Positions 3,163-58,277 of a stretch of DNA of 64,000 nucleotides are shown here, piece after piece (positions within the stretch are counted from its first letter, which is position 1; each line of letters opens with the position of its first letter). Position numbers and translations under genes: made by a program. The DNA comes from Picochlorum sp. SENEW3. Taxonomy: Eukaryota. Below the pieces are notes generated by a model, which saw only the letters and a list, made by a program, of their open reading frames with translations, ran no database searches and was not told the DNA's origin. The DNA is taken from the NCBI GenBank assembly GCA_034226945.1, contig CP120462.1, positions 806,001 through 870,000 of the forward strand, given 5' to 3'.

Positions 3163-4446
3163 TTAACACTTTGGATCGGGTCTTTGGTCCGAATCTTCAT
3201 CCATAGATTCGAGCATTTCATGCACTTCTGGGGTTCTCTTGTATGAAGTCGTGCCATTGGATGCAGACAGTCCTCTTGGCACCCAGCTTGTCGTACACAT
3301 GTCTGGTGTACATCCTTGAAGGATTTTCATACTTTCATCGCTCAGTTTGTACAGTGCTTTTGTATGAATCCATGTGGCTGGTCCACCTGGGCGGGTGGAA
3401 TCATCTGGTACAATTCTTTCCAACACAATTGGCACAGCATTTGGGGGATTATAGACCCCCATGAATTGGTCGACAGTCCAATGGAACCACCTCATGAGGA
3501 ATATTCGAGAGGCGAGTCCGTGGGTGACCAGGACAAGGGAGGAGTCTCCTGAGAATCTACCAGCATTGATATCCCGCACCAAGTGATCTTCAAACAGCGT
3601 CATCCTATCATACACATCTGCTCCAGATTCACCGTTCGGAAATCTATAGAAAAATCTTCCAAAACGAAGCCTTTCGGCTTTCTCTCGTCGCTTCCCTTCA
3701 GCATCCTGAAAGTTGCCAAAATCTTGCTCTCTGAGCTGTACTTCTTCCTGAACACCAGCAATATTTGATACACCAAATGCTTCTGAGACGCCTTCATACG
3801 TCTGCTTACTCCGTAAATACGGCGACGTATAGAAGAATAATTTGCTATCACTTGCAATATCTTTAATCATCCTTCCTGCGTTGAACGCCTGCCTCCACCC
3901 AGTCTTGGTCAATGGAACCTGAGGATCTGGCAGATAGGTATACGCTTGATTATTCACGTTGCCTTCACTCTCTGCATGCCGTACTAATATAATCTTCTTT
4001 GGCAATATTCTATGATCTCTCGGCGTCGCCCCTGTGGATGTTGAATGATATCGAGCATCAAAAAGACCAACCAACCTTCTGTCATGTATCGCAGCAGTGC
4101 TCATCTGTTTCCGAGCCTCGTCGTCCTGAGCGGCCAACTTGTCCAACACCGGAGACCTATCACGAGTGTCTTTCCCAGGCACCACAGCCTTGGCGAAAGA
4201 CCCCATCACCTCCTGCATCTCTTCAATCATAGCCTGCTGCTTCTCAATCATCTTCTGCTGAGAGTCCACAAGACTCTTCAGCTCCTCCATACCCATCGCA
4301 TCAGCCTTTATAGAATGCGCATGGTGTATCCAAGGGCGTCTTCTGTCAGCAACCCGCACCATCCTACCAGAGTGTACCCTTGGACTTGTGTACAGGTGGG
4401 ACACCGGATGCATTGCATCCGCTCTGTGAGCGCCATGCACCATCAT
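3163..4446 (-). CDS. Histidine phosphatase / phosphoglycerate mutase-like (AT74/Det1 type)
   Basis: IILVRHAESEGN, YTSPYLRSKQT, LREQDFGNFQ, RFPNGESGADVYDR, LVTHG. Start ATG uncertain. Confidence 0.85.
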   Translation of the reverse strand: MMVHGAHRADAMHPVSHLYTSPRVHSGRMVRVADRRRPWIHHAHSIKADAMGMEELKSLVDSQQKMIEKQQAMIEEMQEVMGSFAKAVVPGKDTRDRSPVLDKLAAQDDEARKQMSTAAIHDRRLVGLFDARYHSTSTGATPRDHRILPKKIILVRHAESEGNVNNQAYTYLPDPQVPLTKTGWRQAFNAGRMIKDIASDSKLFFYTSPYLRSKQTYEGVSEAFGVSNIAGVQEEVQLREQDFGNFQDAEGKRREKAERLRFGRFFYRFPNGESGADVYDRMTLFEDHLVRDINAGRFSGDSSLVLVTHGLASRIFLMRWFHWTVDQFMGVYNPPNAVPIVLERIVPDDSTRPGGPATWIHTKALYKLSDESMKILQGCTPDMCTTSWVPRGLSASNGTTSYKRTPEVHEMLESMDEDSDQRPDPKC

Positions 4447-5099
4447 CTTCACCTCCCTCAGTCGATACACCAGTCTATCGACAATACATACACTACTACT
4501 CAAAATCCCACCACAGCTGTGGTATCATGCATGAATGAACACAAAAGCCTCTCACACCAGAATATTCCGTTTCTGTACCCACAACAACACGGCGTCATGT
4601 CCACTCGTTTCACCCATGAATACACACATTGTGATATATATAATCTATAACTCGTGCTATATGGCAAGCAATGGCATCCAAATGGAGAATGCGTTGCCCT
4701 GTTGTTGGAGAACCGAGGGTTAGGGATTGAGCACAGCAGCACACGTACCTCACAGTGGGGTTCTACTATTGTATTTTAAAATGATTTTTATACTCTTCAG
4801 CGCAGATGCATGCGGCATGAATGAAGGTCCAAGGTCTGAATTTTTGTGTTGAATGATCTATTTAACGAGAAAACCCCCCGATGGCCTTCATGCACCGACT
4901 AATATTCCTCACAATGTCTGATCAGAGATCTAAAATTATATCTAAGTAGTACATTCTATCAGAGAATCGCATTGATAACATTACGCGTGTGATCTCTGGA
5001 ATCAGTAGAACGTCGTCATCGTAGTAGAACTGATCGGCCGAGTGTTGTCTATTTCGATCGACACTTTCACCCATATAAACAAATATTTATCAAGTGCTG

Positions 5100-7250
5100 A
5101 TGAGCTTTGGGTTGGTTGCGCGTCATTGGTGCACGAGAAATTTACAGAGGAGTGTTTGTACCCAAAATACGTTTGTCTCGTGTGTGCCTGGTCGATTTCT
5201 TGAAAGCAGGCGTTATAGAGCATCAGGTCCATTTTCTAGGTATTCCTCACGACAGAGTGCACGGTATTCGAGCGGCAGACATTGTGTGGTGACGATGAGT
5301 GCTGTACAAGAGGCAGTGAGTGCCAAACTTGGGGGATTGCGGAATGTGATGAAGGGATTGGGGGTGGATGCGTTCATCATTCCATCTGAGGATCCGCATA
5401 TGAGTGAGTATCCTCCGGATTGTCATGCAAGAAGGGAATTTATTTCAGGGTTTGATGGGTCTGCTGGGACTGCTGTGGTGACTCATGATGTTGCTGCATT
5501 GTGGACAGATGGGAGATACTTCTTGCAGGCTGGGGAGCAGCTGTCTTCTGAATGGACGTTGATGAAGGCAGGAACTCCTGGGGTTCCAGATGTACGTTCT
5601 CTTATAGTAGAATAATAATGTGTATTCGTCAGCTTGATACATACCTCAACCTGAGAATTTATTGTGTTCTGTATGTAGATTAAAGATTGGCTGGTGTCAA
5701 CGCTGAAAGAAGGATCAAAGGTTGGTATTGACCCAACTGTGCATACTATTGATTCTGCAGAAGCTTTGAAGAAGCATTTGGAAGAGTCTGGAATGGAGTT
5801 GGTGTCATTGAGCGAGAACCCAGTTGATCAGGCATGGGGGGCTGAGCGTCCAGCGGCGCCCAAGGCTGGGCTTCGCATTCACGACATGAAATGGGCTGGA
5901 ATGTCTCCAGCTGATAAAATCAGTCAGATGAGGGCAGAGATGAAGGAGGCTGGGGCAGATGCCCTTGCTGTGACCATGCTTGATGAGGTTGCTTGGCTTT
6001 TGAATCTCAGAGGATCTGATGTACCATACAATCCAGTATTTCTATCATACGTTATCATTACAGATTCTGAAGCCATGTTGTTCATTGACGCTGACAAGGT
6101 TGATGACGCAATTTCCAAACATTTGGCAGAGGCCAAGGTGACTGTCAAGCCATATGCTGAGGCATTTGATGCTGTTCTGGCTATTGCTAAGAAAGGTGGA
6201 AAGATCTGGATGGATCCATCAAAAGTTAGTTTTGCTATGAAAGTGTCGGCGTTGGAAGGCGCGGAGAAACAAACCGGCGGGAGAAAGAGGTCTCGTCCAT
6301 CATCTCCCATACTTGCACGAGCATCACCAGTCAGTCAGGCCAAGGGTGTCAAAAATGTGGCAGAGCTCGAGGGCCATAAGGAAGCACATCTGCGCGATGG
6401 TGTGGCTTTGGCCAAATTCTTGTGCTGGCTGGAAAAGACGATTGCATCAGGAAAGACGCTGACCGAGGTGGAGATTGATGAACATCTGACTGGATACAGA
6501 GCTGCTCAGGAAGGATTTGTCGAGCCATCATTCCCAACTATTGCTGGAGCAGGACCGAACGGAGCCATCATTCACTACCGAGCACAACCTGGAACTTGCA
6601 AGACTGTAGAGGCCAACACCTTGCTCTTGGTGGATTCTGGAGGTCAGTATGACTGTGGAACCACAGATATCACCAGAACAATGCACTTTGGAACACCAAC
6701 AGAGCACCAAAAAGCGTGTTTCACTGCAGTGCTGCAGGGGCACATTCAACTGGACCAGGTTGTGTATCCTGAAGGAACGCCAGGATGCGCCCTTGATACG
6801 CTTGCAAGATCTCCCCTGTGGCGCATGGGTCTCAACTACAGACACGGAACAGGCCATGGTGTTGGTGCTGCACTCAACGTGCACGAAGGACCACAATCAA
6901 TCAGCCATCGTTTTGGAAACACACAGCCCCTCCTCCCTGGAATGGTATGCTCCAATGAGCCTGGATATTACGAAGATGGCGCCTTTGGAATCAGAATTGA
7001 AAACCTCTTTGTGATTGTCGAGGCACCAACAACCTTTAGGTTCGCAGGACAGTCGTACTACGGATCTAGCAGACTCACCATGTGTCCTATTCAAAAGAAA
7101 ATGATGAATAAAGAGATGATGTCGCCCTCCGAGATTGAATGGGTGAACACCTATCATCAGCAAGTCTACCAAGCCCTCGCTCCACGGCTTGAGGCTGAGA
7201 ATGCATCAGAGGAATTGGAATGGCTCGCGCAGGCCACCTCTCCATTGTAA
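5100..7250 (+). CDS. Xaa-Pro aminopeptidase P (M24B) with organellar transit peptide, 2 exons
   Basis: PSEDPHMSEY, LWTDGRYFLQA, DSGGQY..GTTDITRT, HGTGHGVG..LNVHEGP, SNEPGYY..GIRIEN. Intron 5592-5678. Confidence 0.93.
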
Positions 7251-7476
7251 TCATCCGCATTATGTAACATAAAGCATCGTCTCACGCTTTCCATTTGTAA
7301 CCGGGGGATTTCCAATCAATAATTGGTACACAAGAGTACTGCTCAGTGGTTGTAGTGCACCCCACATATGTTAGGGTATTTCATCATGATTGATTGTACC
7401 CTAGTCGCCTTCCTGCTTATTATCAAGTCCTAAAATCAATTATACAGTTATTATCGATTAAAATTAACGGTACATC

Positions 7477-8223
7477 ATGTCGGAAGCTTTAACCGAAGCC
7501 TGCACCCAAGGACAAGCCCTTTTGGATGACCTTCTCGGGACTGTTTCAGAGGAAAGCAGCCGTTTTGAAGCAAAGACTATTTCTCCAGCGTTTTTGGTAC
7601 GAATTTGATCATAGTATTTGGAGTTCATGGTTGAAATTATCGTGTCGACCCTGTCGAGCCATGAATGTCAATGTATTTCACTCCACCCTTCGCAGGCAAG
7701 CGCAAAATGCCTTGTATTTCTCAACTCTTGGAGAGCAGGTGTGTTTGCTGGGGGAGCGTATGGCACTGGGTTTGCCATTGCCAAATCCTCGTCTGGGTCA
7801 TGGACAGCACCCTGCTTTGTCACATTGAAAAAGCTCGAACTCGGTGCCTTTTTTGGGTATGAACAGAGTAGAACTCTGATGTCAGCGTTGACCAAATCCT
7901 CCATTCAAAAGTTGATTGATAACGAGTACACAGAGTTTGGATCAGACGTGACTGTTCAATTGTGGCCCGTGGCAGACCATGGCCCTAATGACCAGATATC
8001 TGTATCTCCATCTGACTGGGTGACAGCATCGTGCTCGACAGGAATCATCTTTGATTTCTCTTTATCAGGTGGTGGTATGAGGATTGATGACGAGAAAAAT
8101 CATGCCGTGTATGGAGAAGGGGTTTCAGCTGCAGATTTATTGGGTGGCTCTGTGGATAAGCCAAAGGAAATGATTCCTTTGTATCAAAAGATCACTGCCA
8201 TTTCAAAGATGGCATTGCAGTGA
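7477..8223 (+). CDS. SYLF/Ysc84 lipid-binding domain protein, 2 exons
   Basis: AKCLVFL..RAGVFAGGAYGTGFAIAK..GSWTAP, and N..VYG..V.A.DLL.G.V..P..M..LY. Intron 7597-7695. Confidence 0.8.
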
Positions 8224-8264
8224 TTCTAGTAGTATATATGTACAATATTGGCGTTTTGAATTTG

Positions 8265-9679
8265 TTATAATATTGTTCGAGAGAGGGGTTTGAGTGCGAC
8301 ATCTTGGGGAGCCACAAAGCTCCACGCAAGAGCCCATCGAGAGGTTTTCCCCTGCACAAATTCTGTCGTCCGAACGACTGTTCTCCCAAGGTCGTGAATC
8401 ATCTTGCGAGCCATCTTCATGGTTGACTTTTTCCCGACCATGGATGAGAACCATGTACATGCTGTGGTATGCTTTGCTGAATCCCAAATCATATTCTTGA
8501 TAAATGCTTCCTCACCTCCAGGGTAGACCATTTCCATGGATACCCCACCAAATGCCGTTTTTGGATTCTTCCCTGCTTCTTCCTCTCTGCTGAAGAATGG
8601 TGGGTTGCACATGCATGCATCCAATTCGCCATCACCATCTCTGATACAAGAGCTAATGATTCCCTTTGGGTTCTTCGTCTCACCATCATCAGGCTGTTGT
8701 TGACATGGCTGCATGGATACCAGTCTGAGATGGATGAGGGGAGCAAGATCTGGGTTTGCTTCTCTATTCCTTGCAGCCACTCGAAGCGCATCAGCATTCA
8801 CATCACATCCAATACACCTCCATCCTACATATGAGGCTCCAAGCAATGGATAAATGAGATTTGCACCACATCCAATATCCAAAATACACCGTCTTTCAGT
8901 CCGATGACGACTCCAAAGCGACAAGACATCATCCAACCAACAGATATAGTTGAGTCGGTTTGCCAATGGTGGTACAAGATAGGGTGGATCAAGACTCCAC
9001 TCTATGCCAAAATCATGATGCAGTTGTACTCGAACAAGCTCACGACACGCATCATCGTCCTGAAAATCAATGCTGATTCTTCTGCAACCCTCATCCGAGG
9101 AGGCAGCAGCAGCAGCAGCAGTAGATGTGTTAACTGCTGTCGTCTTTAAAAAGGGCTTTAGGCTGGGATACAGTCGACTCAATTCCACAAAATCAGGCTT
9201 TTCTATGCTATAGATATTTTTAGGATGCATTCTTCTTCTTTTCGGACACCATTCTCTCTCTTGAACATCTAGTTTCCTCTTTTTCTTTTGAATACTCGTC
9301 TCCCCTCGCTGCTGTTGTGAAATTTCTCCTCCTTTTTTGTCTTCTTTGCTTGCTCCAGGAAGAACCGGAGAAGAAGGAGATGATGTTACTTCTAGCAACG
9401 ATTCATATACACGATACCGTATCTACACGCAATGTATATATATACAAACTGATAGAGAAAATGAGAGATCACCTTCCACCTTCCTCCCACGCATACACAC
9501 AAAGAGAGCAGCAGCACAGAGGAAAGAAAAAGTAGTAACACAGAGTCAAAGACACGATAGATACACACCTGTTGCACCTCCTCATTCAATGGATCCTCCC
9601 GAAGAACAGCATGCAACTCGTGCAAACACTCTTTCAACTCCCCTTCCTGCTCTTCTATTCTACTGCCTTCCTTCTGCAT
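8265..9679 (-). CDS. METTL16/FIONA1-like RNA m6A methyltransferase (RlmF family), 2 exons
   Basis: MHPKNIY, LVPPLANRLNYI.W, LDIGCGANLIYPLLG, CMCNPPFF, WFSSMVGKK, QGKTSRWALAWSF. Proposed exon 1 is 9679-9569, intron 9568-9423. Confidence 0.88.
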
Positions 9680-13187: not shown

Positions 13188-14573
13188 ATGGCATGGCGAT
13201 GTTGCACACGCCGATATATTGGATATATAAGACAGCGGAGAGGGGATTCGAGTGTCTTGAGTGTTCGGTTTGGAGGGGATCAACAGCATGTCGAGTCGAC
13301 AATTCGGCATCCTGATGTGTCTGTGTCGGTGGTAAACGATGTATCAACACCATATAGTAATACAAAAAAAGGATGGAGAGGTTTTGTGAAGGAATGGCTT
13401 GGGTCGGTGTTTCTACCTGTTGGGTACCCTGAGGCTGTTGGGTCACCACGGTACTTGTCGTATGTGGGGTGGCAAGCATTGCATCATGCCTGTTCTTCTG
13501 CGAATGGGGCTCTTGCGTCTGCTTTTTTACTGTATTCGGCTGGTTTGGGGTCTGCAACGGCTCTTCCAGTTGCTGGCGCTTTTAACTGGATTTTAAAAGA
13601 TGGTCTTGGACAAGGTGCAACACTGATGGTGACGAGACTGGTGTCGAGAGATTTTGATTCATCGACGCGGTTGTGGTATGTGTTGGCGGCGTTGCAGTTG
13701 GATGTGGCGGTTGGTATGGAGATTATGACGTGGTCGTTGCCGCCATGGCTGTTTGTCCCCGTGGCTGCTTCAGCAAACTGCCTGAAAGGTTTAGCGTGGA
13801 TGACTGGAGGTTCGACACGGACAGCGTTTCATGTATCGTTTGCTCGTATGGGAAATATTGGTGATATAACTGCGAAGGCGACGTCGCAGACGATTTGTGC
13901 GTCTCTGGTGGGGACGTGGGGGGGATTGGCGATTGCAGCTGGCGTTCATCAGGATGTGATCTTGGCTGGGCTGGCGTGCGCATGTCTTTCTGGTGTGCAT
14001 ATATTTTCTTCGTATAAAAGTGCGATGTATGCACCGTTACGTACGCTTGATGCATTTCGTTTGAAGCGTATAGCTGAGAGTGTTGTGCGTGGTGAGAAGG
14101 AGATGCCCAGACCTGATGATGTCAAAGATGTCTTGTTTGTTCCTCCTGGGGACGAGCAGTGTCCTCAGTATAAAGTATCTATCGAGCATATTGCTCGATA
14201 TCATAGATTATATCTGTTAGAGTACGGCGATTTGTTTGCGGAGAAGAAGTATCTCGTGATTCCTCGACGGAATCAGAGGCCTTTGGTCTTGTTGCATGAG
14301 ACGTGTCGGATTCATGATTTTGTCGAGGCTGGTATTTGTGTGGTGCATTTGGGAGAGAAGAAGGATCAGATAAACAAAGATGTGTTTGGTGAAGAAGTGA
14401 TACGGAATTCGACGCGAGCTGAGAAGGATTTGGTGGCGGAGGAGGTGAGGGATTCCATCGCATGGGCGCACCACACGACCAAAGCGACGGTGGTTGCTCG
14501 GATGGAGCGCCTTGGATGGGATACGTCGACTGTTATGGAGACCTACATGGCTTCCGCAGCAGAATGGGGATGA
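13188..14573 (+). CDS. RUS (ROOT UVB SENSITIVE, DUF647) family protein
   Basis: FLPVGYPEAV..YL.Y..WQ, NWILKDGLGQ, SFARMGNIGDITAK..SQ. Confidence 0.88.
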   Translation: MAWRCCTRRYIGYIRQRRGDSSVLSVRFGGDQQHVESTIRHPDVSVSVVNDVSTPYSNTKKGWRGFVKEWLGSVFLPVGYPEAVGSPRYLSYVGWQALHHACSSANGALASAFLLYSAGLGSATALPVAGAFNWILKDGLGQGATLMVTRLVSRDFDSSTRLWYVLAALQLDVAVGMEIMTWSLPPWLFVPVAASANCLKGLAWMTGGSTRTAFHVSFARMGNIGDITAKATSQTICASLVGTWGGLAIAAGVHQDVILAGLACACLSGVHIFSSYKSAMYAPLRTLDAFRLKRIAESVVRGEKEMPRPDDVKDVLFVPPGDEQCPQYKVSIEHIARYHRLYLLEYGDLFAEKKYLVIPRRNQRPLVLLHETCRIHDFVEAGICVVHLGEKKDQINKDVFGEEVIRNSTRAEKDLVAEEVRDSIAWAHHTTKATVVARMERLGWDTSTVMETYMASAAEWG

Positions 14574-14656
14574 TGCATATATCATATTCTACGAGATGAA
14601 TGAATCGGTGGAGGAACGTATGTATGTGTTCTTACAATATATATATATGTGTGCTA

Positions 14657-15172
14657 CTATTCCTCTGGTGTCAGTGGCAAATCACCTTCATCTCTCACTC
14701 CCAGGGTCATCAATAAGCCCACGTCACTTACGGCGCCAATAATAGCCCCTGCAAATACAGCTCTTGCTGAGCCTTTGTAGATGGACAGGTTGTTCATTTG
14801 GTACCAGAATGCATTTGCTGTCGCCATCAAAAGGTAGAATACTGGCATCAAGAGTCCAATCATGCCATATCTCCATGTATTCACGCCACCCGACGATACA
14901 ACAACAAACGCAACTATAGCAATAGCGATTTGATAGAATGTAATGAACCATGTAAAGCTAAAATACGTATCACATGGACCAGGTGATAGGTATCCTTGAG
15001 TCAAGGTATCAATGTAGTCCACCACAGTGCTGCCATCAGCCAGCAAAAAGTCCTGCCTGGTCGCCCCGCATTTATTTTGCGATGCGGCGATACCGCCCAA
15101 CAATATGAATCCGGCTGCAAGTCCCAAGGTGGAAAACAAAAAGGCAATGCCTCTAGGTGGCGAACGAGGCAT
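14657..15172 (-). CDS. 4-TM membrane protein, LCI1-like paralog A
   Basis: About 171 aa with four hydrophobic helices. Motifs GIAASQNKC, CDTYFSFTWFITFY, WRYGMIGL, ARAVFAGAII, LG.RDE are shared with the two neighbours. Confidence 0.7.
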   Translation of the reverse strand: MPRSPPRGIAFLFSTLGLAAGFILLGGIAASQNKCGATRQDFLLADGSTVVDYIDTLTQGYLSPGPCDTYFSFTWFITFYQIAIAIVAFVVVSSGGVNTWRYGMIGLLMPVFYLLMATANAFWYQMNNLSIYKGSARAVFAGAIIGAVSDVGLLMTLGVRDEGDLPLTPEE

Positions 15173-15503
15173 CTCGAGGTGCGTGCTTCCCTGTTGAGTT
15201 TTGATAGCGCTGCTTGTCTTCACGGCACACGTGCAGGCAATTGAGTTGGAGAATATACAATGTCCCAGATATTTTGAACAGCTTACAATACGTTTCGAGG
15301 CCATCAGAGTCCACGTTTGATACGGTTTCGCCAGAGGCATGCGTCGATATTCTTGGAAATTGTCTTGGACGAACCAAGCACGAATGCTGACACTGTGCTG
15401 GCTCTGCAAACGTGGACACCGCACCATATAGGACGAGGTTTTTAAAAACTCAGTCTAGTTTACTTTGTGTTTCTGAGATTGGGTGGTGACAAGAAGAGTT
15501 GAA

Positions 15504-16097
15504 ATGGGAATGCTCAAGCACGACATCATCCCATACCTGTTGATATCGTGGGGTCTCGCAGTCTTTGGTTGGATTCTGATTCTCTCTGGGGTCGCAAGTT
15601 TGCAGCAAAATTGCACATCTGGACCAAATGGGTATGCTGTAAATATCAGACAGTTGGCTGGATATTTGGGTATAGCCTCATGCTCCAAGGTTTATGCATA
15701 CACTTGGTTCATCACATTTTATGCCTTTTTCATGTTGGTGCTGACTCCGATACTCGTCGTTACTGGCAAACTGAGTAAATTCAGGGCCGGTTTCATCGGA
15801 CTGCTCGCCCCTTTGATCATGCTCTTGGGAGATATGTCGAGTACTTTCATCTACTACACAGACTTGGACTTCAATTCAACTGCTGTGGCAAGAGCTAGAA
15901 CAACCACTGCGGGAGCCGTCATTACATCAATAGGGGCGTATTTAGTTCTCATATGCTCTGGTATTGTAGACGAGGACAAAGAGAAGAGCGAAAAATCCGG
16001 ACAGCCCACTGGAGCAGTCTACGGAGGTCGCTATGGAGTGATGCCTGACGACGACCAACCCCCGGGGTATTTCAAAAACTATACTGAAAAATCCTGA
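15504..16097 (+). CDS. 4-TM membrane protein, LCI1-like paralog B
   Basis: GVASLQQNC, CSKVYAYTWFITFY, FRAGFIGL, RARTTTAGAVI, SGIVDE. Confidence 0.7.
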   Translation: MGMLKHDIIPYLLISWGLAVFGWILILSGVASLQQNCTSGPNGYAVNIRQLAGYLGIASCSKVYAYTWFITFYAFFMLVLTPILVVTGKLSKFRAGFIGLLAPLIMLLGDMSSTFIYYTDLDFNSTAVARARTTTAGAVITSIGAYLVLICSGIVDEDKEKSEKSGQPTGAVYGGRYGVMPDDDQPPGYFKNYTEKS

Positions 16098-16515
16098 GGG
16101 CAACTATGTACATGTATATATGTATACCGTTCGATGGAGTGTAATACAATGTCTTGAAGACTGATGAATGCCTGTCAAAGTAGAATACAACTACTACTAT
16201 GATACTATGGTGATGATGACTCGCATCGATGCATCCAAGAAACTCCCCAAGAAAGTCTCACAATCCTATGGAATGGCATTCGGCAGAGAGTCATTCCCGC
16301 AGAATGCTACAGAGCAAAACTCACTTGATTTCACTTTGGAGAAATTCAAAACAGGCATTCGTCGTCATACGAACAGCACCAGCAGACGAATATTACTGCA
16401 GTCACAGACACACAGCAAGGTGAGCGACGAGACTACTGCCTGCTGCTGCGTCAGACGGATATTTACATCGCATCGACGTTCGGTTTATACCATCTAGAGA
16501 CCTCGTTCCTTCAAA

Positions 16516-17082
16516 ATGAAGAATGCGAAAACATTTGTCGCGACGACAGGGGCTTGGGGATCAATATGTCTTGATCTCATGGCATGGGTTCTCCTCTTGA
16601 GTGGAACGTCAGCCATGCAGGCATCATGCGGAGGCACAAATGTCCAAAGCGTGGGGGGACTGGCAGGATACAACGCACCAATCTCCTGTGATCATTTCTT
16701 TGGATACACCTGGTGGATTACGTTTTATAATCTGGGCTTTGTGCTCGCGGCCATAGGTACCATGGCTACTGGAAACGTATCTCGATTTAGGCCAGGATTA
16801 ATTGGCTTGGGAGCCATTGCAGCGATGCAGGCCATGGTCTGTGCGAATACATTCCTCAGTCTGAATCAACTCAACATAGATAGTGAAACGTTCAAGACAA
16901 GAGCTCGTGTTACCGTTGCTGGTGCAGTCATCAAGTCTATTGCTACGCTGCTCTTCCTCATTTTTGCAGGCATGAGGGATGAAAAGGACACGTGGGTGGA
17001 AGAAACAACGCAGCCAGCAAAGAAGGAGAAGGGCCCTCTCGGTCCTCCAGCATCGCAGAATCCATTACAAGGTGATGAGTAG
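16516..17082 (+). CDS. 4-TM membrane protein, LCI1-like paralog C
   Basis: GTSAMQASC, CDHFFGYTWWITFY, SRFRPGLIGL, RARVTVAGAVI, AGMRDE. Confidence 0.7.
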   Translation: MKNAKTFVATTGAWGSICLDLMAWVLLLSGTSAMQASCGGTNVQSVGGLAGYNAPISCDHFFGYTWWITFYNLGFVLAAIGTMATGNVSRFRPGLIGLGAIAAMQAMVCANTFLSLNQLNIDSETFKTRARVTVAGAVIKSIATLLFLIFAGMRDEKDTWVEETTQPAKKEKGPLGPPASQNPLQGDE

Positions 17083-17211
17083 AAGATGATGCAGGATCAC
17101 GATACAACAACAAGTTTAAACATAGCAGCAAGAATAATGCTCATATGTGCGAGTGATTGGGTTTCATAATAACAAGTTTGTGTAAGAGCACACACCAGTG
17201 TCTGTTTTTAT

Positions 17212-18930
17212 TCATGTAGCCTTTGGAAATCGAGGTGTAACGATATCATACACCTCTTCAGCATACCCCTTCTTTGCATGAGGCACTTCAGAACGCAACG
17301 AGAAACGAAGTCCACCAAAGTACGGGTCTTTTGGATTGGCAGGAGGCGCATATGGGGGCATATACATGGCAACATCACACCAATTTCTTTGCGCAAGGAG
17401 CTTCTCTGTTGGGTTGTGATACTGACCAAACGCCTTCATCATCTTCTGCTTACTCTTGGCATCGATTACTTTGGAAAAGTTTGTACGCGTCAACGTCGAC
17501 ACGACACCAGAGGGAGGAGGTGAGTTCATGATGGCAGAGCAGATAACTTGATACATGAACAATGGATCCTTTTCCTTCTGAGGACGTGGCTTTGCCCTCG
17601 AGTACACTTCACCAAAGCCTCCAACATGGGCATCGCCAGAGAGAATGGTAACTCGATACTGCTTCTTTGCTGCAGACTTTTGAAGCAACTGTACAAACTT
17701 TTGTTTCTCATATGCATGCACAGAGGCAGCCCATCCATCCAGTAAATCATCCAGAATCTCAGGTTGCTCAAATCTGTCCAAGATGCCAGCCGATTTTCCC
17801 ATGGCTCGAAGGCACGTACTTTTCTTAAACAGCGCCTTCATTCCGGTTAGGATACTCTCACTCAGTGGGATACTGGGAAACACCACCGGGACACCGCTCA
17901 ATGCCACCATATGCTCTACATCATCTGGCATAGAGTCCAATGCCTTTTCAATCAACCCATATGTCTTATCCGGTAAAATCTTTTCCTTTGATCTCTTCGA
18001 CCTCATATCCATGCATAATAAAGCAATCTGGGGACCCATAAATTTCACGCTATGAAATCCCTCAGCCTCCTCTAGAAATTCCCCAGACTTTCGAGCAAAC
18101 TCTTCCGTTGCCTGCAACTGAAACAAGAGATAGAATCTCTTTGCAACCTTGAACAGTCCCTGGAAGAACTCACACTTCTGCAACTTTGGACTATATGATC
18201 CAAACCCATCCCAAATGTCATGATCATCCCAAATCATAATTCCAGGAATGCATGCATATGCTGTAGAGACATGTTCCATCGTGAACGATTCCAAGTAATT
18301 CTTCAGATAAAATTCAGTCGCAGCGTCTTCATGCGCACTCGTCCATTTCGCATCAATTTTATCTGAAAGTCGAGGCATTTCACCCCATTCTTCAAACAAG
18401 TCTACTTTCCACACAGGGTCAGAGTACACCTGATCCCCTCCTCCAACCAATGCATGCAATGGAAACGCATCATGCACCTGCAACATGTCTCTCCACAAAT
18501 ACGTTGGATCCTCCCTAGAATAATGATCTTGTGCAATACTCCCACTGATCCCGTTGCAACTTGTATACCCCCAATGGAAAGGCTGCCCTTTTGCCTGCAA
18601 CCAAAACGTTGCAGAGGATGATGCCCCCTTCTCCGTCGTCACCACATACTGCACCGCTCTTTGCCTCTCAGACAGCATGCGCGTAAAATCAAACCTCCAA
18701 AAAGACCACCCAAGCACCGTATCCAGCCGTGTGGGGGCTCCCACACGAATCGTTCCATCCTTCCCTTTCCCTGGCTCGTCAGGACCATCCACGTCCCGCA
18801 ACACCATAGAAGGCTCCTCTCCCTTTGTCAAATATAAGACTGAACCAGACCATTCATAGTCCACCCCCTTGGGAAGGCAGTTTGTAAACTTGAGAAACGG
18901 ACCAGCCGTATCCTTTGTATATTCTCCCAT
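17212..18930 (-). CDS. PhoD-like metallophosphatase (no signal peptide)
   Basis: YTSCNG, GGGDQVYSD, WDDHDIWDGFGS, DMRS.R, LSGDAHVG. Confidence 0.85.
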   Translation of the reverse strand: MGEYTKDTAGPFLKFTNCLPKGVDYEWSGSVLYLTKGEEPSMVLRDVDGPDEPGKGKDGTIRVGAPTRLDTVLGWSFWRFDFTRMLSERQRAVQYVVTTEKGASSSATFWLQAKGQPFHWGYTSCNGISGSIAQDHYSREDPTYLWRDMLQVHDAFPLHALVGGGDQVYSDPVWKVDLFEEWGEMPRLSDKIDAKWTSAHEDAATEFYLKNYLESFTMEHVSTAYACIPGIMIWDDHDIWDGFGSYSPKLQKCEFFQGLFKVAKRFYLLFQLQATEEFARKSGEFLEEAEGFHSVKFMGPQIALLCMDMRSKRSKEKILPDKTYGLIEKALDSMPDDVEHMVALSGVPVVFPSIPLSESILTGMKALFKKSTCLRAMGKSAGILDRFEQPEILDDLLDGWAASVHAYEKQKFVQLLQKSAAKKQYRVTILSGDAHVGGFGEVYSRAKPRPQKEKDPLFMYQVICSAIMNSPPPSGVVSTLTRTNFSKVIDAKSKQKMMKAFGQYHNPTEKLLAQRNWCDVAMYMPPYAPPANPKDPYFGGLRFSLRSEVPHAKKGYAEEVYDIVTPRFPKAT

Positions 18931-38749: not shown

Positions 38750-40609
<1,860 letters not shown>

Positions 40610-56905: not shown

Positions 56906-58277
56906 ATGATTGCCACCCAACAGAGACCATCCTGCGCGGTTGGGTCCATCGTTGGCCAGCAAAAGGCCCTTCAACAGAGTTCTTACAGACAATCGATCAG
57001 AAGCAAGGTCTCAGTGTCATCAAAACTGTTTAAGAAAAAAGTATGCCATCGTCAGGACAGGGCTGTCGTCACGTATGCCTCGTATTCAGCAAACAACTAC
57101 GGTCCCATGGGCGGGGACGCTCGGATCAAGGTTATTGGCGTTGGAGGAGGAGGAGGCAATGCTGTCAATCGAATGATTAGTAGTGGTCTTCAGGTATGGG
57201 ATATATCAATCACATCGCCTCTGCCCTCGCGGTGACATGTCCTGCAGTAGAGCGGGACATCCATCTCCCTCGTTGACACCGTATTCAGCATAGATGCTAT
57301 CAATATATGTGTAGGGAGTAGAATTTTGGGCTGTGAATACGGATGCACAGGCTCTTGAAAGCCACCAAGCATTGAACAAACTTCAGATCGGGACCACGCT
57401 GACCCGTGGACTCGGTACAGGTGGTAAGCCAGAGCTTGGGGAAGAAGCTGCGCAGGAAAGTCATCAGGAACTGGCTTCAGCGATGAATGGAGCAGATATG
57501 GTGTTTATTACAGCCGGGATGGGGGGAGGAACGGGAACAGGTGCTGCCCCTGTGGTGGCCCGCCTGTCAAAGGATATGGGTATCTTGACAGTAGGAGTGG
57601 TCACGTTCCCATTCACATTTGAAGGTAGACGCCGAGCTAACCAAGCAACAGATGGAGTTGAAACGCTGAGGAAGAATGTGGACACATTGATTGTGATTCC
57701 AAATGACCGCCTGTTGGATGTTGTTGGAGAGTCAACGCCTCTCCAGGATGCCTTCTTGCTCGCCGATGATGTCTTGAGACAAGGAGTGCAGGGTATTTCC
57801 GACATCATTACCATTCCTGGATTGGTCAACGTTGATTTCGCAGATGTGAAGACCATCATGTGCAACTCTGGTACAGCCATGCTGGGTGTCGGAGTCTCCA
57901 GCGGAAAGAATCGCGCAGAAGAGGCAGCCATCGCGGCCACATCTGCTCCTTTGATCGAACGATCGATCGAGAGGGCTACAGGAATTGTATACAACATCAC
58001 CGGAGGAAAAGACCTCACATTGGCCGAGGTCAACAGAGTCTCCGAGGTGGTCACATCGCTTGCAGACCCTTCTGCCAATGTCATCTTTGGAGCAGTTATT
58101 GATGATCAGTACGAGGGAGAGATCCATGTGACCATCATCGCAACTGGATTCTCTCACACCTTTGAAGAGAATCTGCTGTCTGGAAGAGTCCCAGCAGCCA
58201 CCGAAGAGCCAACCCGTGAAACTGCATCTGATGTTGGTGGCAGTGCTGGTGGGTTCCTGGGACGATCTTGGATGTAG
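56906..58277 (+). CDS. FTSZ1: Plastid division protein FtsZ1, 2 exons
   Basis: [40 protein letters not shown]. No FtsZ2-type C-terminal core peptide is evident. Intron 57194-57314. Confidence 0.93.

Follow-up and report, generated by a model that had tools for sequence, protein, structure and literature searches.

What do three small, adjacent genes of the marine green alga Picochlorum sp. SENEW3 encode, and how are their products related to LCI1 of Chlamydomonas reinhardtii? The genes, here named A, B and C, lie in a 64,000-nucleotide stretch of contig CP120462.1 (positions 806,001 to 870,000), hereafter the window, which is gene-dense eukaryotic DNA with a G+C content of ~46%. LCI1 is known as a low-CO2-induced plasma-membrane protein and a proposed gated CO2 channel (PMC10096703, PMC11637766, PMC13159521), and Picochlorum is described as a fast-growing production alga with a rudimentary CO2-concentrating mechanism (CCM) (P. 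celeri preprint 10.64898/2026.09.27.753040). Our comparisons indicate that A, B and C almost certainly belong to the LCI1 superfamily and adopt the same fold. LCI1, usually treated as a near-orphan of Chlamydomonas, is thereby placed inside a far larger, uncharacterised family for which there is no Pfam model.

Layout and Sequence of the Three Genes

The three genes (Table 1) are arranged with A and B divergent, 331 bp separating their start codons, and with C on the same strand as B, its start located 418 bp downstream of the B stop. For gene A, the longest open frame spans 14657-15427 on the minus strand, and the 171-amino-acid (aa) form begins at 15172. An alignment of the three proteins spans the whole membrane part; the other two are 29% and 38% identical to A, and 35 columns are invariant, among them, in A numbering, G27, Q32, C35, C67, T74-W75, I77-T78-F79-Y80, R101 and G103, followed by I105-G106-L107, A136-R137, A141-G142-A143, I145, G158 and D161-E162. 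An earlier note, made from the sequence alone, had described three adjacent intronless genes of 171-197 aa, A divergent from B and C in tandem, as strongly diverged paralogues sharing a string of motifs; the open reading frames (ORFs), their spacing and the alignment agree with it on each of these points.

Each protein also has traits of its own. A has a short C-terminus, W-R-Y-G in loop 2 and Gln at the polar position of transmembrane helix 2 (TM2). B has Ala at this position and an acidic C-terminal tail terminating in YTEKS, while C combines Asn at the same position with F-R-P-G in loop 2. The C-terminal tails of the three proteins comprise 13-44 residues. A Pfam search of A, B and C matched no domain. 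When the profile of the family described below was run against the 902 stop-to-stop frames of the window, it found exactly A, B and C, all three of which were in the profile; A scored E = 5.3e-46 in this self-including search, and the next-best frame of the window reached E = 0.24.

Kinship with LCI1

The structure of LCI1 is available as PDB entry 6BHP, 'LCI1 channel' of Chlamydomonas reinhardtii, which contains three chains. Searched against the PDB as single sequences, the three proteins reach it to different degrees. Gene C places chain 6bhp_A on top (E = 0.0016), gene B finds it as the sole match at E <= 10 (E = 3.7), and gene A leaves LCI1 unmatched at E <= 10. The picture sharpens with profiles. 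An 82-sequence family profile matches 6bhp_A at E = 1.7e-22, aligning profile positions 8-175 with chain residues 9-191, and the next PDB chain follows at E = 0.56. Each half of the family finds LCI1 by itself: the trebouxiophyte-side profile (42 sequences) matches 6bhp_A at E = 3.1e-19 as its sole match at E <= 1, and the profile of the other half (43 sequences) does so at E = 3e-19. LCI1's own strings occur in 0 of the 157 proteins collected, indicating that LCI1 did not seed the profiles.

Structural comparison, which covers models of A and B, points in the same direction. The AlphaFold2 model of B has a predicted local distance difference test score (pLDDT) of 82.9 and a predicted template-modelling score (pTM) of 0.77, and is built of four long helices at residues 9-38, 60-87, 94-120 and 125-153. 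In a Foldseek search of the PDB with this model, only 6bhp_A was retrieved at E <= 0.001 (E = 2.3e-4; TM-scores 0.65 and 0.75). VIA-align superimposes the B model on 6bhp_A with Z 17.4 and a root-mean-square deviation (rmsd) of 2.0 Å over 152 residues, the next entry scoring Z 13.1. For the A model (pLDDT 83.4), the corresponding values are Z 18.9 and 2.0 Å over 160 residues, with the next entry at 13.5. The AlphaFold2 training cut-off is earlier than the release of 6BHP.

The likeness to LCI1 had been put forward in the earlier note, together with a suggestion to compare a predicted fold with the LCI1 structure. The profile matches and both VIA-align scores bear this likeness out, and the Foldseek search provides the suggested comparison. 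The LCI1 strings given there are present in the 6BHP alignment, and the residues it had placed opposite the LCI1 Glu, namely Gln in A, Ala in B and Asn in C, prove correct in the alignments.

The Cys-Pair Family

The family to which the three proteins belong is large and widespread among core green algae. An exhaustive profile search returned 306 representative proteins at E <= 0.001, with 126 at E <= 1e-10 and 22 at E <= 1e-30. The 82-sequence alignment combines the three window proteins with 79 of the 150 matches listed, which were chosen for profile coverage; fragments and fused models among the matches listed were left out. Word-indexed protein searches contributed little (5 and 11 matches), and a viral scan with the B-type alignment yielded 87 pattern matches and 0 relatives. 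A Pfam search of the 82 sequences matched no family. The two halves of the family recognise each other with an hhalign E-value of 5.3e-39.

The most conserved positions are listed in Table 1 and include a Cys pair in loop 1, after which we refer to the family; an acidic D-E following helix 4 also belongs to the signature. At the helix-2 position facing the LCI1 Glu, the 82 sequences carry Glu (36), Gln (25), Asn (4) or Asp (4). The remaining 13 have none of these residues, and B with its Ala is among them.

Names exist for a minority of the relatives. Those named belong to the Trebouxiophyceae and the Chlamydomonadales, with Chlorella variabilis, C. vulgaris, Parachlorella kessleri and Apatococcus fuscideae in the near half of the tree and Polytomella parva, Chlamydomonas leiostraca, Pleodorina starrii and Edaphochlamys debaryana in the far half. 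All are annotated as 'hypothetical' or 'uncharacterized' except for a single 'chloride channel 7' label. B and C share 90% clusters with Picochlorum sp. entries annotated as 'hypothetical protein', in line with a trebouxiophyte host. The genes had been called undescribed in the earlier note, which fits both these annotations and the empty Pfam searches. The exceptional label was assigned by the source to P0094 (165 aa, JGI/IMG) and has no Pfam support.

Several members deserve separate mention. P0009 (429 aa), P0083 (322 aa) and P0066 (430 aa) contain two or three family domains in series and probably represent tandem copies joined during gene modelling, suggesting that tandem arrays of the family occur in other green algae. 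P0050 ends in a Ysc84 domain, probably a fused neighbour. The Polytomella parva protein P0084 (UniRef name) is a typical Cys-pair member with Glu at the TM2 position. Polytomella is a non-photosynthetic, colourless green alga.

Lineages and Conserved Gene Order

A quick maximum-likelihood tree was computed from the 82 sequences, with LCI1 itself and the B-type proteins P0006-P0008 standing outside it. Gene A groups with P0019, P0045 and P0021 (support 95), within a clade of 8 (support 99) that holds a Chlorella variabilis protein. Gene B groups with P0005 (support 100), and gene C with P0010 and P0011 (support 97). Because each gene falls into a different supported subclade, A, B and C are three old lineages rather than recent tandem copies.

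The arrangement of these lineages is found again elsewhere. A metagenome scan led to 2 loci. On one metagenome contig (L002), proteins 44-53% identical to A, B and C are encoded in the order A (5212-5694, minus), B (5977-6576, plus), C (within 6646-7383, plus) and a PhoD-like gene (7386-9299, minus). This succession of A(-), B(+), C(+) and PhoD(-) is that of the window. A third instance is hinted at by P0019, P0007 and P0011, of A, B and C type respectively, each of which is listed with a longest contig of 66,858.

Farther upstream, aldose-epimerase and RNA-methyltransferase genes are also common to L002 and the window. As gene order is thus widely maintained, the kept A-B-C cluster need not mean selection for clustering. 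Directly upstream of A, L002 carries a CAP (cysteine-rich secretory protein) gene (4131-4994, minus) in place of the RUS/UVB_sens gene of the window, which is a local break in an otherwise kept gene order. The other neighbours of the cluster in the window are an enoyl-CoA hydratase gene and a TPT transporter gene.

Three further ORFs of the window are recorded here. A bestrophin-like ORF (1361-2641, minus; Bestrophin_2 E = 4.7e-12) lies ~12 kb from the cluster. Bestrophin-like proteins are treated in reviews as candidates for thylakoid bicarbonate channels in the Chlamydomonas CCM; in a genome this gene-dense, the proximity is probably due to chance. An FtsZ-like ORF (57483-58277, plus) matches the Tubulin profile only from position 104, and a ketol-acid reductoisomerase ORF (39266-40609, plus) matches the KARI_N profile only from position 28. 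Both genes probably have an upstream exon, in which case the window is not wholly intronless.

Coding Status and Transcription

A and B are under purifying selection. Compared with a relative of ~90% identity (L001), the ratio of nonsynonymous to synonymous substitution rates (dN/dS) is 0.084 for A over 170 codons and 0.067 for B over 111 codons. An independent pointer to transcription is that B and C proteins occur among transcriptome sequences (mmetsp).

Four public runs gave contigs over positions 14400-17300, and these revealed no joints of the kind that introns would leave. Three of the runs, X2, X6 and X8 (three studies), carry an RNA label that is the tool's guess, and X1 is probable DNA. 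The probable RNA contigs form three separate blocks, in X6 at 14660-15266, 15493-16121 and 16363-17172. Both spacers are empty in the probable RNA runs, with gaps in X6 at 15267-15492 and 16122-16362 that are holes between contigs and not a measure of depth. The probable DNA run X1, in contrast, continues across the A-B spacer and through the greater part of the B-C spacer. Gene A is covered at 14660-15266 in X6 and at 14675-15256 in X8, and the contigs over gene B begin at 15493 in X2, X6 and X8 alike. A, B and C are thus probably transcribed, and as separate units.

The contig boundaries themselves offer a weak hint of transcript ends, and favour the start codons that yield 171 aa for A and 188 aa for C. 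The probable 5' untranslated region (UTR) of A leaves out three ATGs farther upstream in the same frame, at 15304, 15340 and 15427. For gene C, a public 286-aa model (P0166) reaches upstream within 16168-16515 and removes 15 nt (16483-16497, GT..AG), containing an in-frame stop, by splicing. The probable RNA contigs at the 5' side of C pass this stop (16495-16497) without a joint. The 188-aa protein is more likely to be the product of gene C than the 286-aa model, because the contigs cross 16483-16497 unspliced and start only at 16324-16373.

Table 1. Window coordinates of genes, probable UTRs, candidate elements and neighbours at the A-B-C locus, and conserved residues in B numbering with their occurrence in the 82-sequence alignment
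Feature	Position	Strand	Remarks
Gene A	14657-15172	minus	Coding sequence of 171 aa + stop, ATG at 15172; intronless
Gene B	15504-16097	plus	Coding sequence of 197 aa + stop; intronless
Gene C	16516-17082	plus	Coding sequence of 188 aa + stop; intronless
Probable 5' UTR of gene A	15173-15266	minus	Three probable RNA contig ends at 15265, 15266 and 15256; X1 continues; weak hint
Probable 5' UTR of gene C	16363-16515	plus	Probable RNA contig starts at 16324 (X2), 16363 (X6) and 16373 (X8)
Conserved block, candidate shared regulatory element	15255-15402		A-B promoter region; 130/148 identical to L001
TCCAAGAA word	15350-15357	minus	A-B spacer; lead only
Tandem CCAAGAAAC / CCAAGAAAG words, including TCCAAGAA	16234-16257	plus	Upstream of gene C; lead only
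PhoD-like phosphatase gene	17212-18930		Downstream neighbour
RUS/UVB_sens gene	13188-14573		Neighbour on gene A side
Q34	Residue of B		82/82; end of helix 1
C37	Residue of B		75/82; loop-1 Cys pair
C60	Residue of B		76/82; loop-1 Cys pair
W68	Residue of B		82/82; helix 2
R94	Residue of B		67/82; after helix 2
L107	Residue of B		76/82
R130	Residue of B		61/82; start of helix 4
R132	Residue of B		51/82; start of helix 4
G137	Residue of B		82/82; helix 4
G153	Residue of B		78/82

Candidate Regulatory Elements

The spacer between A and B contains a block that is better conserved than its surroundings, which makes it a candidate for a shared regulatory element (Table 1). In this comparison of two sequences, the flanks of the block are identical to L001 at 51/82 and 57/101 positions, and the synonymous-site difference between the window and L001 within the genes amounts to 0.44-0.51.

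A short word, TCCAAGAA, recurs in both spacers. Of its 5 occurrences in the 64-kb window, one lies between A and B (minus) and one between B and C (plus), and 2 of its 3 occurrences in L002 fall within the A-B and B-C spacers in the same orientations as in the window. The word was chosen post hoc from shared k-mers, and these counts are not a test. The A-B spacer also harbours an inverted repeat, GTCCACGTTTG / CAAACGTGGAC, whose 11-nt arms at 15309-15319 and 15407-15417 match perfectly and have ACGT at their core; no further exact copy occurs in the window. The repeat was rejected as a conserved pair, as L001 keeps the first arm only.

Proposed Function and Alternative Explanations

The Cys pair brackets loop 1, which suggests a disulfide and an extracytosolic loop 1. 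The sequons of B (N36, N124) and A (N128) are all found in loops predicted on the loop-1 side, and counting charges by the positive-inside rule gave an undecided topology for A, B and C. We propose that the disulfide formed by this pair would place loop 1 outside the cytosol, and that A, B and C would reside in the plasma membrane or a membrane of the secretory pathway. There they might assemble as oligomers in the manner of LCI1 (a trimer, as in the three chains of 6BHP), each bundle providing a passive path for CO2 or other small inorganic-carbon species that could feed the weak CCM of Picochlorum. For the locus as a whole, this explanation, with separately transcribed LCI1-superfamily genes and a putative oligomeric inorganic-carbon path, strikes us as evenly balanced between right and wrong. 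Taken by itself, the role of A, B and C as a channel for CO2 or inorganic carbon, drawn by analogy with LCI1, is possible and, in our estimate, somewhat short of probable.

Co-folding of A (residues 1-165), B (1-165) and C (1-160, as partner) gave values of 0.24 and 0.23, below the mark of 0.34; run without controls or family alignments, it is neutral on homo- and hetero-oligomers. That the three proteins act together as one hetero-oligomer seems unlikely. In a more ambitious scenario, the three lineages would stay clustered because they form one hetero-oligomeric channel with unlike Gln/Ala/Asn pores, driven by a shared promoter element and serving as the missing plasma-membrane entry to the CCM. 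The Cys-pair family would then be the ancestral, general type of small-solute channel in green algae, and LCI1 an offshoot derived within the Chlamydomonas line; we judge this scenario improbable.

A number of observations weigh against a carbon path built on the LCI1 model. The four-helix bundle is a common arrangement, and unrelated helical bundles commonly score Z ~13, so that the case for kinship with LCI1 rests on the Z margin and the sequence evidence jointly, not on the fold by itself. Identity between LCI1 and the A and B models is only 18-20%, and the function is read from this one distant relative. LCI1 lacks the loop-1 Cys pair, having Ala and Pro in those columns, and lies at the same distance from each half of the family (E ~3e-19 in either case). 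As it is equally far from either half, A, B and C, judged by sequence, are not orthologues of LCI1, which would instead be an outlier to the wider Cys-pair family; the status of orthologue was rejected on these two grounds and on the absence of LCI1-type sequence from the 157 proteins. The role of LCI1 itself is unsettled, and lci1-1 mutants show no significant loss of inorganic-carbon affinity (PMC11637766). Given the Ala of B where most members have Glu or Gln, A, B and C may work unlike one another. The member in colourless Polytomella indicates that the family does not serve photosynthetic carbon uptake alone, and the neighbours of the cluster (RUS/UVB_sens, PhoD-like, enoyl-CoA hydratase, TPT) are not CCM genes.

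Alternatively, A, B and C could be tetraspan organisers or accessory subunits, in the manner of MARVEL proteins, tetraspanins, claudins or TARPs, that bind other membrane proteins such as transporters or pumps and position them. The next structural neighbours after 6BHP are sarcospan of the dystrophin complex (Z 13.1-13.5), the Fc-epsilon-RI beta chain, uroplakin, claudins and TARPs, and look-alikes in the Atlas include MARVEL clusters (score 0.82, TM 0.56 and 0.73). LCI1 is described as part of a complex that also contains HLA3 and the ACA4 ATPase (PMC10096703), its mutant is without a clear phenotype (PMC11637766), and a family member in a colourless alga would be in keeping with a scaffolding role. 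These tetraspan matches, however, stay at ~13, the level common for helical bundles, Pfam gave 0 MARVEL or claudin matches, and the invariant polar residues within helices (Q34, Glu/Gln of TM2) would suit the lining of a path more than a simple scaffold. We consider an organising role rather unlikely on balance. In another reading, the cargo is different, with A, B and C being channels or carriers for another small solute (bicarbonate or another anion, ammonia, a neutral molecule) rather than CO2. The conserved arginines (R130 in 61/82, R132 in 51/82, R94 in 67/82) together with the acidic or amide residue of TM2 suggest a polar or charged ligand, LCI1 is called a bicarbonate transporter in some papers (PMC5853954; preprint 10.1101/2020.11.05.369421), and a non-photosynthetic host such as Polytomella would again be accommodated. 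The 'chloride channel 7' label of the one member lends little to this idea, being without Pfam support; another solute is, to our mind, an unlikely answer.

A module for osmosensing akin to the membrane domain of Sho1 from fungi, which the earlier note had raised on a weak similarity of pattern, would suit a host genus described as halotolerant. In the Atlas, two clusters of small, unnamed proteins from Ascomycota score 0.85 and 0.83 and are leads only. Sho1 continues from its membrane domain into a cytoplasmic SH3 domain, whereas the short tails of A, B and C hold none; an SH3 or any signalling domain is found in 0 of 14 longer family members, and every named relative is a green alga. Within this limited test the likeness to Sho1 is unsupported, and a kinship of this kind appears very improbable.

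Standing in the Literature and Implications

Homologues of LCI1 outside Chlamydomonas are already on record in general terms. LCI1-like genes are described as confined to green algae and bryophytes (hornwort genome paper, PMC7027989), LCI1 homologues as absent from diatom genomes (PMC5853954), and Ulva as being without an LCI1 orthologue (preprint 10.64898/2026.07.16.738900). The term LCI1 occurs 0 times in the accessible part of a CO2 study on Picochlorum celeri. A literature search, made without subscription journals and closed supplements, did not find the Cys-pair family, the outlier position of LCI1 or the conserved three-lineage cluster; the only paper in which it met LCI1 together with Picochlorum was the hornwort genome paper.

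A, B and C become concrete candidates for plasma-membrane carbon entry in Picochlorum. Cys-pair paralogues are also worth seeking in Chlamydomonas, where they might mask the effect of losing LCI1 and so account for the weak lci1 phenotype. The Polytomella member calls for caution, since the basic role of the family may not be photosynthetic. Should membrane organisation turn out to be the true role, the result would amount to a routine upgrade of annotation from 'hypothetical' to 'LCI1-like'.

Comparison with Known Systems

LCI1 and the three Picochlorum proteins agree in a colinear full-length profile match, in the order and packing of four helices and in a size of 170-200 aa. LCI1 also shares with the family the Gln that closes helix 1, the Trp that opens helix 2, the Arg following that helix, the A-G of helix 4 and the D/E behind it. 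It differs by a longer loop 1 and by the Glu that it carries at the polar site of TM2, which is occupied by Gln in A, Ala in B and Asn in C. Induction by low CO2, residence in the plasma membrane and the trimer are known for LCI1 alone.

MARVEL, claudin/PMP22/TARP and MS4A/CD20 proteins and sarcospan resemble A, B and C as four-helix membrane bundles of similar size, and claudins carry cysteines in their first outer loop. These generic tetraspans have no sequence-family match to A, B and C, and their structural scores are 4-5 Z units below that of LCI1. Within the Cys-pair family, A, B and C are ordinary members that keep all invariant and near-invariant columns. What distinguishes them from the rest of the family is that three of its lineages are united in one conserved cluster.

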